From the IMG/VR virus record IMGVR_UViG_3300014205_000174: a stretch of DNA of 64,000 nt; one strand, written 5' to 3'. Each line of letters begins with the position of its first letter. Within the stretch, counting starts at the first letter, position 1. This DNA is from a virus (taxonomy: Duplodnaviria > Caudoviricetes). Of the stretch, positions 19,782 to 24,251 are shown piece by piece. The notes below the pieces were generated by a model. The model had not been told where the DNA came from. It made no database searches and saw only the letters and a list, made by a program, of their open reading frames with translations. The position numbers and the translations under genes were made by a program.

Positions 19782-22700
19782 ATGGGCGTAACAAAGGCCA
19801 CTAAAAATAAACCGACCAGTAAAAAGCCTTCTGCCGCGAAGGCCGGTGTTGTATTGCCTGTACCGGCAACGCCAGCTCAATTGCGCCGTCGCTGGAATAA
19901 AAAAACTAGCCAGGTGGAAAAGCTGGCAAATAATATCCAAAGCCTGCGGTATAATCTCACTACTGATATGAAGAGTGATGACCAGAAGGTGTTTCTGACG
20001 GCTCTTTGTGTAAAGTGCATGGAGCTTACTGGTGAGCGTGTCGGCAATGACGAAAGCGCTGCTAATGGGCATAGGGGTATTACTGGATTGCTTAAATCCC
20101 AGGTAAAGGTAGAAGGTAATAAGGTTTCATTCCGGTATACCGGTAAGTCCGGGGTTAACCAGGATAAATCCGTAACGGATGAAAAACTCGCTGATGGCAT
20201 ACGTCGTGCGAAGGAAATATCCAAAGCGAAGTATCTTTTTTGTACAGATGACGGGTTTAAGATAAAGAATGACCGCGTCAACAGGTATCTGGCTGACTTT
20301 GAGATTACGGCAAAGGACTTGAGGGGCTTTTCTGCCAACCGCTGGCTGATACAGAAGTTAGTGGCCAATGATATCGCTGACGAGGAGAAGGACAGAAAAA
20401 AAGACTTCAATGCATTTGCAAAGGTTGTTGCTGCGAAAGTGGGCCACGGTACCGGCATGCTGAAAAACCAATACCTCATACCGGGGTTGGAAAAGGCGTA
20501 TGTAGAGGAAGGCAAAATAATAGACATCAAGGATATTGCCGGATATAAAAAAGGTGGTGGCGTTGAAAAGATGGAAAAGGGTGGTGTTGTGGCTAAAAAA
20601 GAATCCACTAAAAAACCAAGTCCCAGTGAACCTGCGGGAAAGACAATAAAATATTCCGAGTTTAAAGAAGATATCCAAACGTTTATATTTCAGTTCCTAG
20701 AGGATAGCGGGGCTCCGGATAAGATTCTCGATAACCTATACCGCGCAAGGTTTGTGGTTAAGCCGTATCCTATAAAAAATATTTCTCCGGAAGTAAATGA
20801 GGCGTCCCTGGATAAAGACCGGGGTGTACAACATGCGGCAAAGTTCAAAAAAGACAAGTACCAGCCGGTAATATTTTTCAACAACAAACTGATTGATGGC
20901 TTCCACAGGGCCTATTCTGAAAAACAAAAGGGTGCATCGGTTCTGTATGGTATCGAGCTGTCTGATGTTTTGCATGAAAAGAAGGCGGAGCTGAAGGCCG
21001 GCGGCCAGGTATCCAAGCCCGACCCATTTAACGAATGGTTTGCCGGCAGTAAAGTTGTCGATAGCAAGGGCCAGCCACTTATTGTTTATCATGGCACCGA
21101 TGCTGAAAATATTACAACATTCAATATTGATTTAGTTCGCGATAAATTTGGTTTCTGGTTTTCTGACGATAAGGAGTTCTCGGAAATGTTTGGCACTACA
21201 GCCATACCGGTATACCTGTGCATTAAAAACCCGCATGTAATAAGCAAAGAAAAATGGGACGATATCCGACGTGCGCATGCAAAAGATGCAGTGTGGTTTG
21301 CATCATGGCGTGACCAGTTAATATCCAAAGGTAAAGATGCGCTGATAATTGAAAGCAGCGATACGACCTTTGCTGGCACGAAAATACGTAATCCAGAAAT
21401 TTATGCGGTATTCCATCCAACGCAAATAAAGCTTGCTGACGGCTCCAATACCACATTTGACGGCAACAACCCAGACATTCGATTTGAGAAGGGCGGCCAT
21501 ATATATCGCAGTGTTGGCATGGAAGGTTACCTGGTGGGTAAAAGCAGGTGTCCATATATCGGCAAAGAAAAAGAAATTGATGCTTACGACACGGATATCC
21601 GTTGCTTCGTTTCCGAAACCAACGATACCTACCGGTTTATTTATGTTGTAAACAAAAAGAATGTTTCCGTTCTTCATATTCAAAAGGAAGGTGCTGACTG
21701 GGTAATCCGCAATGCATTTACCTTAGAGCATCACCGCAGACATGGGTATGGCCGGAGTCTTTACCTTGAGGCGCAGAAACATTTGCGCAGAGTTGTATTT
21801 TCGTCCAATTTGAGCCAGGAAGGCAAGGCATTTAAAGAAAATGTTACTCTAGAAATGCATATTGGTAATAATACGGAAATCGGTAGGATTGACGATGAAA
21901 CAGATACCCAGTTTCAGATAAAAGGAACGTGGTATGCAAAATGGATAATAAAGCCAGCGGCGGTCGCTGAAGATAATGAAGGTATACTTGTTCCGGATAA
22001 GATAAAGCCGACGATGATTATATCTGCATTTTCAAATGAGATGGATTGGGATAAGGTAGAGCGGTATGCTGATATTATGAAGGAAAGTGGTATGGAGCAT
22101 GGTTTCCCTGCTATATCTGGGTATCCTATTATTATTGATGAAAACGAAATTGGAGACCAGTTTCTTACCGGTGAGGAAGTGTCTGAACATCATGTTGGTC
22201 AGTTAGCGTGGAAGGTAACCAACGGCCATCATCGTTCTTTGGGGGCCATAAAGGCAGCTCTGCCATGGATTGACGTTGAGCTTGATTATAGTACGGTAAC
22301 TAACATGGAGCGCCATAAGCGCACAAACGGCAAGTACTACGAATCTGGCGGCATTACCGAAGATGATGAACCGAAGTCGACATTAGACCAGCTAAAAGAA
22401 GATGTTTCCGCTTGCAGGAACTTTGACATTTTCAGGGGCAGAATTGCCCTGCGCGAACCAGATGAGGTTAACGAGATAATGACTGTCCTTGGTCTTGAAA
22501 AAGCAACTACCAGGGAAATTGGTGATATTAATCTGAAAAAGCTGAAGGACTTTTATACTCAGGAAAAGCGCATAGTAAATGAGCGTCGTAAGATAAGGGG
22601 CAATGAGGCGGCAGCTATCCGCACTGAAAAAAATGTTGAGAATATCTTTGACCTTGCTAAAATATTAGGTGACGACATGGATAAGGCTGTACTGGATTAC

Positions 22701-24251
22701 GAAGAAAAGAAAGCCGCTATCAAATACCCGGTACAATTAATTACCGTGGAGCCATCTATTTTAGATGTGCTCAATGGCCTTTCGGATAAAGGATGCAGGG
22801 CGCTGATAGTTGGTGGCGCTGTCCGTGACGCTATTCTGGGCATCACCCCGAAAGATATAGACATAGAGGTTTATAACATAACCTACGCAGACCTGAGCGA
22901 ATACTTATCGCAGTACGGGAGAGTTAACCTTGTTGGTAAGAACTTTGGGGTTATTAAGTTTAATCCGGCAGCAGGTGGAATGGAATACGACTTCTCCGTT
23001 CCAAGAAGGGAAAACAAGATAGGTGTAGGCCACAAAGAATTTGAAGTGACCTTTGATACCACCATGACCATAAAGGATGCCGCAATGCGCAGGGACTTTA
23101 CGTTTAACTCCCTTGCGTATGACCCGGTATCCAATACGGTGTATGATTACTTTAATGGCCTGATGGATATCCGGCTCAAAGTAATAAGGCACACGTCTGA
23201 AAAGTTTACTGAGGACGCGCTGAGAATACTCAGGGCCATGCAGTTCCAAGCCAGATTTGATTTCACCATCGCTGAGGATACCAATACCTTAATGCGGGAA
23301 ATGCTTACTACCTCTGATGAGTTTGCATCCTTGCCAAAGGAGCGTGTTTTCGAAGAGTGGTACAAGTGGGCCTCAAAGGGCGTCCGCCACGACCTTATAT
23401 TCTCGTTCATGCGGGATTGCGGCCTTATCGACTGCTACCCGGTATTAAAGGCGCTGGCAGAAACGCCGCAGGACGCTGTGTATCACCCGGAGGGGAATGT
23501 GGAGGTGCACACTACCTTATGTCTGACTTATATGGACTCTATCTTGTCCCGGATGCCGGATATCCCGGCTGACGAGAAAGTAGTGCTGGTAATGTCCACG
23601 CTGCTTCATGATGTCGGTAAGCCTGCAACTACAGAGGAGCAGCTAAAGAATGGCAGAATGACGATTACAAGCAATGGCCATGAGGCATTGGGCGGTAAGA
23701 TGTGTCATGATTTTTTACCTTCGCTTGGGTTCCATAAAGATTTGGTAGACCCTATAGCTAATATTGTAGCTAATCATTTGGCTGGCGTGAATATTACCAT
23801 GATACCGCATGAGAGTGGCAGGGTAAAGGCAGTAAAGAAGCTAAGTAAGCGATTGTACCCGGCAACTATCCAGCAATTGCTGCATGTGATGGATGCAGAC
23901 AGTAATGGGCGTGGCTGGGAAGAATACAAAGAACCTACCGGTGCAAAGGAGCTGACGACCATAGCCGCAGACATAAACGTGACGGACAGGCCCTATGAAT
24001 TTATACTTCTGGGGCGTCACCTTATAGAAGCAGGGCTAAAGCCGTCTCCTGCATTCGGGGAGATTTTACGTAAAGCAAACGAGGCCCAGTTAAACGGCGA
24101 ATTTAATGATATTACCGGTGGCAGGCAGTGGCTGAAGGATAATTTGGATAGCTTTGTCAATGGCGGCATTATTAGTGCACCAGTTGATTTGTTTGCCGAC
24201 TCGCCTGGTGCACCAGTTGTAAATAGTGCAGTGCCGGACTTATTTCAATAA
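19782..24251 (+). CDS. polyvalent protein: DNA topoisomerase IB + ParB-like + ADP-ribosyltransferase + GNAT + ParB-like + CCA-adding nucleotidyltransferase/HD
   Basis: TopoIB pentad (GERVGN, GKSG, KDLRGF, VGH, QYL); LIDGFHR; VYHGT..FWFS..VYL.IKNP..EIYAVF.PTQIK; HRRHGYGRSLY; VTNGHHR; GGAVRD..DIDIE..RRDFT.N..EDALR; HPEG.V..HT..LLHDVGK. Confidence 0.9.
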   Translation: MGVTKATKNKPTSKKPSAAKAGVVLPVPATPAQLRRRWNKKTSQVEKLANNIQSLRYNLTTDMKSDDQKVFLTALCVKCMELTGERVGNDESAANGHRGITGLLKSQVKVEGNKVSFRYTGKSGVNQDKSVTDEKLADGIRRAKEISKAKYLFCTDDGFKIKNDRVNRYLADFEITAKDLRGFSANRWLIQKLVANDIADEEKDRKKDFNAFAKVVAAKVGHGTGMLKNQYLIPGLEKAYVEEGKIIDIKDIAGYKKGGGVEKMEKGGVVAKKESTKKPSPSEPAGKTIKYSEFKEDIQTFIFQFLEDSGAPDKILDNLYRARFVVKPYPIKNISPEVNEASLDKDRGVQHAAKFKKDKYQPVIFFNNKLIDGFHRAYSEKQKGASVLYGIELSDVLHEKKAELKAGGQVSKPDPFNEWFAGSKVVDSKGQPLIVYHGTDAENITTFNIDLVRDKFGFWFSDDKEFSEMFGTTAIPVYLCIKNPHVISKEKWDDIRRAHAKDAVWFASWRDQLISKGKDALIIESSDTTFAGTKIRNPEIYAVFHPTQIKLADGSNTTFDGNNPDIRFEKGGHIYRSVGMEGYLVGKSRCPYIGKEKEIDAYDTDIRCFVSETNDTYRFIYVVNKKNVSVLHIQKEGADWVIRNAFTLEHHRRHGYGRSLYLEAQKHLRRVVFSSNLSQEGKAFKENVTLEMHIGNNTEIGRIDDETDTQFQIKGTWYAKWIIKPAAVAEDNEGILVPDKIKPTMIISAFSNEMDWDKVERYADIMKESGMEHGFPAISGYPIIIDENEIGDQFLTGEEVSEHHVGQLAWKVTNGHHRSLGAIKAALPWIDVELDYSTVTNMERHKRTNGKYYESGGITEDDEPKSTLDQLKEDVSACRNFDIFRGRIALREPDEVNEIMTVLGLEKATTREIGDINLKKLKDFYTQEKRIVNERRKIRGNEAAAIRTEKNVENIFDLAKILGDDMDKAVLDYEEKKAAIKYPVQLITVEPSILDVLNGLSDKGCRALIVGGAVRDAILGITPKDIDIEVYNITYADLSEYLSQYGRVNLVGKNFGVIKFNPAAGGMEYDFSVPRRENKIGVGHKEFEVTFDTTMTIKDAAMRRDFTFNSLAYDPVSNTVYDYFNGLMDIRLKVIRHTSEKFTEDALRILRAMQFQARFDFTIAEDTNTLMREMLTTSDEFASLPKERVFEEWYKWASKGVRHDLIFSFMRDCGLIDCYPVLKALAETPQDAVYHPEGNVEVHTTLCLTYMDSILSRMPDIPADEKVVLVMSTLLHDVGKPATTEEQLKNGRMTITSNGHEALGGKMCHDFLPSLGFHKDLVDPIANIVANHLAGVNITMIPHESGRVKAVKKLSKRLYPATIQQLLHVMDADSNGRGWEEYKEPTGAKELTTIAADINVTDRPYEFILLGRHLIEAGLKPSPAFGEILRKANEAQLNGEFNDITGGRQWLKDNLDSFVNGGIISAPVDLFADSPGAPVVNSAVPDLFQ

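Follow-up and report, generated by a model that had tools for sequence, protein, structure and literature searches.

Viruses are believed to deploy polyvalent proteins as their first weapons, and the modules catalogued so far chiefly target proteins, DNA and signalling nucleotides. Such proteins were described in phages and conjugative elements (Iyer, Burroughs, Anand, de Souza, Aravind 2017, PMC5512222), in a catalogue that never mentions CCA and has topoisomerase in its reference list only. Meanwhile, stand-alone tRNA nucleotidyltransferases, proposed to restore tRNA 3' ends, have been reported in jumbo phages (PMC7824862, Iyer et al. 2021). Here, we describe an open reading frame (ORF) from a 64,000-nucleotide stretch (hereafter the window) of the uncultured virus IMGVR_UViG_3300014205_000174 (Duplodnaviria; Caudoviricetes), whose genome is ~211 kb in size. 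This ORF probably encodes a single polyvalent effector protein of 1489 amino acids, hereafter P0001. Like the catalogued proteins, P0001 joins many unrelated enzymatic domains in one polypeptide, has an ADP-ribosyltransferase of the ART-PolyVal type next to a GNAT acyltransferase, and includes a domain from the superfamily of ParB and sulfiredoxin (ParB/Srx). Unlike them, it also carries a type IB topoisomerase (TopoIB) and a CCA-adding/HD module. Our literature searches returned no description of CCA-adding or TopoIB modules in polyvalent proteins. Thus, the polyvalent class, each of the folds and the stand-alone CCA enzymes of jumbo phages are known, and what the sequence comparisons indicate to be new is the combination of domains with CCA-adding and TopoIB modules.

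The ORF spans positions 19782-24251 of the plus strand and stays open for 4470 bases, with no internal stop and an even base composition. Its start lies 6 bases beyond the end of the upstream gene, and its stop is followed by the next gene start at a distance of 21 bases. Four Pfam families scored above their curated cutoffs in P0001: Topoisom_I (residues 40-226), ART-PolyVal (427-559), the PolyA_pol head (1008-1136) and HD (1263-1354). A preliminary description of this locus had proposed a polyvalent-type protein of six modules, in the order TopoIB, ParB, ART, GNAT, ParB and CCA/HD. The hallmark ART-PolyVal domain with its adjoining GNAT, as in PMC5512222, bears out the class, and five of the six modules were upheld, the first ParB-like domain (ParB1) being plausible only. 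Alignments and models indicate that catalytic residues are retained in the topoisomerase, the GNAT loop, the motif of the second ParB-like domain (ParB2), the nucleotidyltransferase and the HD domain.

The C-terminal third of P0001 had been described as a class II tRNA nucleotidyltransferase with an EDxxR motif followed by an HD domain, and our searches agree. The nucleotidyltransferase head (PF01743) scored 76 bits against a cutoff of 23, the HD domain (PF01966) scored 28.3 bits against 22, and PHROG 2244 (tRNA nucleotidyltransferase) covered residues 1007-1440 with an E-value of 1.5e-69. All motifs of the nucleotidyltransferase are present (GG1011-12, D1025/D1027 of the DxD, RRD1103-05 and E1144-D-x-x-R1148), and aligning 11 CCA modules, fused or related, showed no variation in any of the catalytic columns. 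The best NCBIfam model was that of the multifunctional CCA addition/repair enzyme PRK10885, with 176 bits over model positions 4-375 of 409, followed by pcnB with 117 bits. E. coli Cca aligns to the module through head, neck and HD domain, in the same order (147 bits, 30% identity, Cca residues 5-395 of 412). H1276/D1277 of P0001 align to H255/D256 of Cca, so that the HD dyad is retained along with the nucleotidyltransferase motifs, and motifs A and B are equally far apart in both proteins, with no deletion between them. We read this module as a Cca-type enzyme, that is, a class II nucleotidyltransferase with an HD phosphohydrolase, with predicted CCA specificity. It belongs to the same family as the stand-alone phage enzymes of PHROG 2244, and the same role is proposed for both; those are single-domain genes of 380-500 amino acids, whereas the enzyme of P0001 is fused to DNA- and protein-modifying modules. 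The Pol-beta nucleotidyltransferases catalogued in PMC5512222 are a different, minimal family. As a side observation, the CCA/HD genes of six other proteins (P0016, P0023 and P0025-P0028) have inserts of about 140-650 amino acids between conserved blocks, and some of them have a nucleoside-diphosphate-kinase Pfam match on record.

At the opposite end of the protein, the proposed topoisomerase with R, K, R, H and Y as catalytic residues stands with all five intact. Topoisom_I (PF01028) matched P0001 with 61.1 bits against a cutoff of 23.7, or with 65.5 bits when the segment was searched alone, and the segment aligns to the poxvirus-like bacterial TopIB of Deinococcus radiodurans (PDB 2f4q) with an E-value of 2e-14. 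R86, K122, R181, H222 and Y231 of P0001 align to R137, K174, R239, N280 and Y289 of 2f4q, which we take to be the catalytic pentad of that enzyme. The likeness lies in the catalytic domain with its full pentad. The pentad columns are kept in all 14 related modules, a single change of H to N included. The fourth pentad position is H in P0001 and N in the Deinococcus enzyme; H at this position is found in the poxvirus and eukaryotic type IB enzymes.

The ART-PolyVal domain (PF18760, Tox-ART-HYD2 clade) scored 73.3 bits against a cutoff of 31.2 over the full profile (positions 1-140 of 140), which supports the earlier assignment as an ADP-ribosyltransferase. The H-S-E triad that had been attributed to it did not stand, since the active site of this family is formed by H in strand 1, Y in strand 2 and D in strand 5 (PMC5512222). 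We judged these columns in an alignment of 75 ART-PolyVal modules, in which the column of H437 holds H in 66 and that of D519 holds D in 58. The two aromatic columns hold Y in 35, F in 21, H in 10 and W in 4 modules at W459 of P0001, and Y in 51 and F in 12 at F470. Because both the W and the F substitution are found in other members of the family, ADP-ribosyltransferase activity is predicted as likely but not certain.

The adjoining GNAT segment, when searched by itself, reached 16-17 bits (E~0.01) against three GNAT models, below cutoff. A full HMMER search retrieved 69 relatives with this module, many of which are stand-alone proteins of ~115 amino acids. Among the aligned family members, 34 of 38 match Pfam PF13508 or PF00583 (best E-value 6e-8), and the family profile matches the GNAT structures RibT (7e-6) and RimI (7e-5). 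Family membership is established through these matches, and the acetyl-CoA loop named in the preliminary description is present: the acyl-CoA pyrophosphate loop R/Q-x-x-G-x-G/A reads R652-R-H-G-Y-G657, for a family consensus of RRKGYA. By homology, the segment is a minimal GNAT of about 115 amino acids.

Of the two ParB domains that had been proposed, ParB2 holds and ParB1 is not established. ParB2 gave no match by sequence in Pfam, PDB phmmer or PDB profile searches. Its AlphaFold2 (AF2) model, covering about residues 721-860 with a predicted local distance difference test (pLDDT) score of 77, was compared with known structures through VIA-align, and all 37 listed entries were ParB/Srx proteins, with Z-scores of 9.0 for M. 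xanthus ParB and 8.2 for sulfiredoxin. The top Foldseek matches were also ParB/Srx (E 3e-3). The Gly-x-x-Arg of the phosphate-binding site, G815-H-H-R818, sits at the start of the helix after model strand 88-92, and does not vary among the 10 family members. Nine stand-alone relatives of ParB2 share 44-56% identity with it. Based on the model, we accept the ParB/Srx fold for this domain. As for ParB1 (about residues 285-405), it had no Pfam or PDB match by sequence, its single homolog is P0004, and our search found no stand-alone relatives. ParB/Srx chains ranked first in both structure searches of its model (pLDDT 60) at chance-level scores (E of at least 0.3, Z of at most 2.6), and the hhalign comparison of ParB1 with the ParB2 family aligned only the DGxHR motif, at 9% probability, which is not significant. 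The motif PVIFFNNKLIDGFHR is ParB-like in appearance and a protein-atlas lead agrees, so that a ParB-like domain is plausible only.

The architecture of P0001 recurs in pieces among its relatives. Through a word-indexed search we identified 85 large relatives with modules in shuffled order. The CCA/HD module was found in 25 proteins of 850-2600 amino acids (41-67% identity), 7 of which also have ART-PolyVal, and TopoIB, ART and CCA modules occur together in P0002 and P0003 (three proteins counting P0001). Individual junctions are found in independent contigs: ART to GNAT in P0033, linker to CCA in P0002, P0006, P0011, P0012 and P0024, and ParB1 to CCA in P0004. The closest backbone relatives, P0009 and P0010, are composed of TopoIB, GNAT, ART and the helical linker, in this order, and are devoid of the CCA module. 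Both match P0001 at the N-terminus and at a C-terminal tail with a twin PxDLF motif. As these proteins share both flanks, the CCA/HD block of P0001 is bordered by a linker and a tail that all three have in common. In sequence terms this is the trace expected of module gain or loss, contrary to mis-assembly.

Scanning IMG/VR with the CCA alignment yielded 10 loci, 2 of which were fused, in giant ORFs of 2593 and 4071 amino acids; none of these 10 loci holds the non-CCA modules of P0001. One of the two (L003:4571-16783, 4071 amino acids) combines a RecD/Pif1-like helicase and an AAA_33 kinase-like domain with the CCA/HD module, and may represent a second kind of RNA-repair polyvalent protein. 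The IMG/VR scan with the whole P0001 protein gave no match, and neither did 50,697 phage records when searched with the ORF through megablast. With tblastn, the phage records returned stand-alone CCA genes only, none covering 80% of the query. We also observed that the twin tail motif (APVDLFA...AVPDLFQ, 24168-24248), which in P0009 and P0010 takes the form PVSLFED...PTDLFAN, looks like a conserved docking peptide. It resembles QL[SD]LF, the bacterial beta-clamp-binding pentapeptide.

The modules of P0001 are separated by regular Gly-Gly linkers, which are not described in PMC5512222. The motif [FYLM]xxGG occurs 7 times in P0001 for 1.3 copies expected, and 500 shuffled sequences contained at most 5 copies each. 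Six of the seven copies lie at module borders, the seventh being the catalytic GG of the nucleotidyltransferase. After the first pair (Table 1), the similar linkers are located at residues 404-408, 568-572, 853-857 and 1458-1462, and none separates GNAT from ParB2. Three other large proteins of the window (24272-26773, 45329-47356 and 47846-54661) are enriched in the motif as well, with 7, 6 and 20 copies for 0.4-2.9 expected, and had no Pfam families; the helicase and the ATPase of the window are not enriched. Among 60+ relatives, 96-97% of the ART modules end in DIRxxxGG. Processing at these linkers is possible. Scans of 27 window ORFs against Pfam and PHROG found no peptidase. In the relative P0004, a C-terminal Peptidase_C39-like (double-glycine peptidase) domain (residues 1618-1720) comes directly after a YSKGG motif, which makes it a candidate for the enzyme that would process the GG linkers of related viruses. 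Searching the window with this region through tblastn gave no match.

The search for tRNA and transfer-messenger RNA (tmRNA) genes of this virus covered the 64-kb window, in which neither was found by default ARAGORN or by Rfam at gathering thresholds. When introns were allowed, ARAGORN detected a tRNA-Ile gene, and Rfam at an E-value threshold detected a candidate two-piece tmRNA (Table 1). Both genes are non-canonical. Both had been described as lacking an encoded CCA, and this is the case: A-CGA follows the acceptor strand of the tRNA, and UCAA replaces the consensus ACCA in the tmRNA. A near-perfect 41-base hairpin at 27771-27811 adjoins the 3' end of the tRNA gene; probably a terminator for both directions, it is scored as 'mir-3119' on either strand. 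Meanwhile, the host is probably a member of Bacteroidota. Shine-Dalgarno-like motifs precede 1 of 38 gene starts in the window and the leaders are rich in A/T, which is also the case for Bacteroidota and the viruses that infect them, and a scan of genome contigs with P0003 returned shared kinase and ART modules only, mostly in Bacteroidota genomes. From two genomes of this phylum, 17 tRNA genes each were sampled, of which 2 and 1, respectively, encode CCA. Since such genes mostly lack CCA, the host must already have a CCA-adding enzyme, and the CCA-less viral tRNA would be host-like and could be served by the host enzyme.

We considered whether the long ORF, or the function assigned to its C-terminal third, could be explained otherwise. 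That separate genes were joined by an error of assembly or frame is suggested by the fact that this exact protein is on record from one contig only. We deem this extremely improbable because the fusion recurs in independent contigs: the open frame and its even composition, the modules found again in dozens of giant proteins, the junctions found again in several of them, and the termini shared with P0009 and P0010 all speak for a genuine gene. As for function, the nucleotidyltransferase might not add CCA at all, and instead act as a poly(A) polymerase, add CC only or A only, or serve as a toxin that harms host RNAs by tailing them. EDxxR is retained in poly(A) polymerase as well, according to the alignment, and the top PDB sequence matches were E. 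coli poly(A) polymerase (PAP I; 69 bits), the A-adding enzyme of A. aeolicus (68 bits) and CCA enzymes (57-65 bits). The PDB scores do not discriminate between these enzymes, and among the matches we noticed no full-length HD-type Cca. Against such a function, the HD domain and body align to E. coli Cca along nearly its whole length, while the alignment of E. coli PcnB (84 bits) is confined to head and neck, with no counterpart to the HD domain and body, and the PRK10885 model outscores pcnB. CC-only enzymes are reportedly recognised, by a criterion attributed to Neuenfeldt et al. 2008, through a deletion form between motifs A and B, contrary to the full-length stretch of P0001. Altogether, a specificity other than CCA addition seems improbable. 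Several observations do weigh against reading P0001 as an effector with active topoisomerase, ART and Cca-type modules. The PDB match of highest score is a poly(A) polymerase, by a lead of ~1 bit, and the NCBIfam equivalog cutoffs were missed by both pcnB and PRK10885 (176 bits against 451), a score by which the module also departs from E. coli Cca, as it does in being viral and in forming the C-terminal third of a 1489-amino-acid protein. The topoisomerase differs from that of D. radiodurans in that the alignment begins at residue 90 of 2f4q, after a Lys-rich leader of 39 residues in P0001, which indicates that the N-terminal DNA-clamping domain (about 90 residues in 2f4q) is absent. The ART module may be weakened because W459 and F470 replace the Y that is usual in most members. 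To these are added the unproven status of ParB1, the indirect assignment of the host, and the small number of tRNA-free relatives discussed below (two records, one of them incomplete).

Two further explanations concern how a genuine P0001 would work, rather than what it is. In one, it is a polyprotein cut by a Gly-Gly-specific protease at Phi-x-x-G-G linkers, the enzymes then acting separately, perhaps as particle cargo. The excess of the motif and its position at module borders, its enrichment in three neighbouring giant proteins and not in the helicase or ATPase, the DIRxxxGG endings of ART modules and the C39-like domain of P0004 all favour cleavage. However, no protease was found among the window ORFs scanned, GNAT and ParB2 lack a separating linker, and GG could be a mere flexible hinge. 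We regard cleavage as a possibility, with the odds somewhat against it, and it is compatible with a polyvalent effector. In the other explanation, the Cca/HD module mainly matures the tRNA-Ile and the two-piece tmRNA of the virus itself, which would make up a self-contained viral translation-rescue module. Both genes are CCA-less and lie 3.5-5.5 kb downstream of the ORF, and none of the six tRNA genes of G004, a related virus in which the CCA enzyme stands alone, encodes CCA. The preliminary description had likewise taken the missing CCA to make these RNAs plausible substrates, but this feature does not discriminate. In the sampled Bacteroidota, tRNA genes without CCA are the usual case, and in two related viruses with fused CCA/HD genes, G001 (245 kb, rated complete) and G002, neither Rfam nor ARAGORN, whether introns were allowed or not, detected any tRNA or tmRNA. 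G005 retains a stand-alone CCA enzyme even though CCA is encoded in most of its sampled tRNAs (29 of 36 when pooled with G004). Moreover, the HD phosphoesterase domain is a feature of repair and not of maturation, as established for E. coli Cca. Because the absence of CCA in the viral genes is non-discriminating, repair of host tRNAs fits better than maturation of viral RNAs, which we consider unlikely to be the main task, and it is more likely that the module maintains or repairs the tRNA pool in general.

Table 1 Features of the P0001 gene and of the RNA genes detected in the 64,000-nucleotide window
Feature	Coordinates	Strand	Evidence
Whole ORF, polyvalent multi-enzyme protein P0001 (probable)	19782..24251	+	ORF call, Pfam, relatives
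Type IB topoisomerase, catalytic domain only, residues 40-249	19899..20528	+	Pfam; 2f4q alignment; pentad in 14 relatives
First [FYLM]xxGG linker pair, YKKGGG / MEKGG	20544..20585	+	Motif statistics
ParB1, probable ParB/Srx-like domain, about residues 287-395, motif PVIFFNNKLIDGFHR	20640..20966	+	Weak model, motif
ART-PolyVal ADP-ribosyltransferase, residues 416-567	21027..21482	+	Pfam; alignment of 75 modules
Minimal GNAT acyltransferase, residues 574-690, loop R652-R-H-G-Y-G657	21501..21851	+	Family profile
ParB2, ParB/sulfiredoxin fold, about residues 736-846, motif WKVTNGHHRSLGA	21987..22319	+	AF2 model, structure searches
Helical linker region, residues 857-991, common to the C-terminal part of P0009 and P0010	22350..22754	+	Sequence comparison
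Class II nucleotidyltransferase head and neck, residues 1008-1240	22803..23501	+	Pfam, PHROG, NCBIfam, alignments
HD phosphohydrolase domain and body, residues 1241-1440	23502..24101	+	Pfam, NCBIfam, E. coli Cca alignment
C-terminal tail with twin PxDLF motif, residues 1463-1489	24168..24248	+	Comparison with P0009 and P0010
tRNA-Ile(GAT), 89-nucleotide intron (insert at position 39), 3' end AAGCGCG-A-CGA	27821..27983	-	ARAGORN with introns allowed
Candidate permuted two-piece tmRNA, acceptor 3' strand ...GACUCC-UCAA	29721..30023	+	Rfam at E-value threshold, 32.4 bits, E 6e-4, gathering score 47

Other genes of the window include an SNF2/Strawberry-notch helicase and an LPD23 domain, neighbours that are also found in polyvalent systems (PMC5512222). 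The AAA_5 ATPase gene at 36637-38901 is interrupted by a homing-endonuclease segment (Hom_end/LAGLIDADG, residues 316-383), which is probably an intein. In addition, a transposase gene encoding 446 amino acids (54732-56072) lies within the viral gene array and matches phrog_506 with an E-value of 6e-107.

Based on these findings, we propose that P0001 would act at the start of infection, either borne by the particle or made early, and either whole or cut at its GG linkers. Early delivery is inferred by functional analogy with T4 Alt and with DarB/DdrB of phage P1, virus-delivered enzymes that are carried inside the head and injected alongside the DNA (PMC5512222); these have no sequence relation to P0001, Alt being an R-S-E ADP-ribosyltransferase. 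The ART and GNAT modules would modify host proteins, and the TopoIB and ParB modules would act on DNA topology or nicks. Meanwhile, the Cca/HD module would keep tRNA 3' ends chargeable, its HD domain stripping 2',3'-cyclic or 3' phosphates and its nucleotidyltransferase then rebuilding CCA. Its main substrates would probably come from the pool of host tRNAs as these are attacked by host nucleases or turned over, and the CCA-less tRNA-Ile and tmRNA of the virus would be additional, not defining, substrates. It is also conceivable, if rather unlikely, that P0001 is a Gly-Gly-punctuated polyprotein, carried or made first, whose Cca/HD repair piece pre-empts host defences that clip or block tRNA acceptor ends. 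If true, this would be the first virus-delivered RNA-repair effector, and a type IB topoisomerase and a CCA-adding enzyme would join the repertoire of polyvalent modules.

The modules of P0001 are compact and separable, which makes the 210-amino-acid topoisomerase core, the 115-amino-acid GNAT and the 120-amino-acid ParB/Srx domain suitable for expression and assay, and stand-alone relatives exist for the latter two. More broadly, a predicted tRNA-end repair enzyme and a poxvirus-like topoisomerase appear to have been built into polyvalent proteins, and at least two dozen related giant proteins are alike. This suggests that protection of the tRNA pool and handling of DNA topology may belong to the earliest step of infection in these large uncultured viruses.

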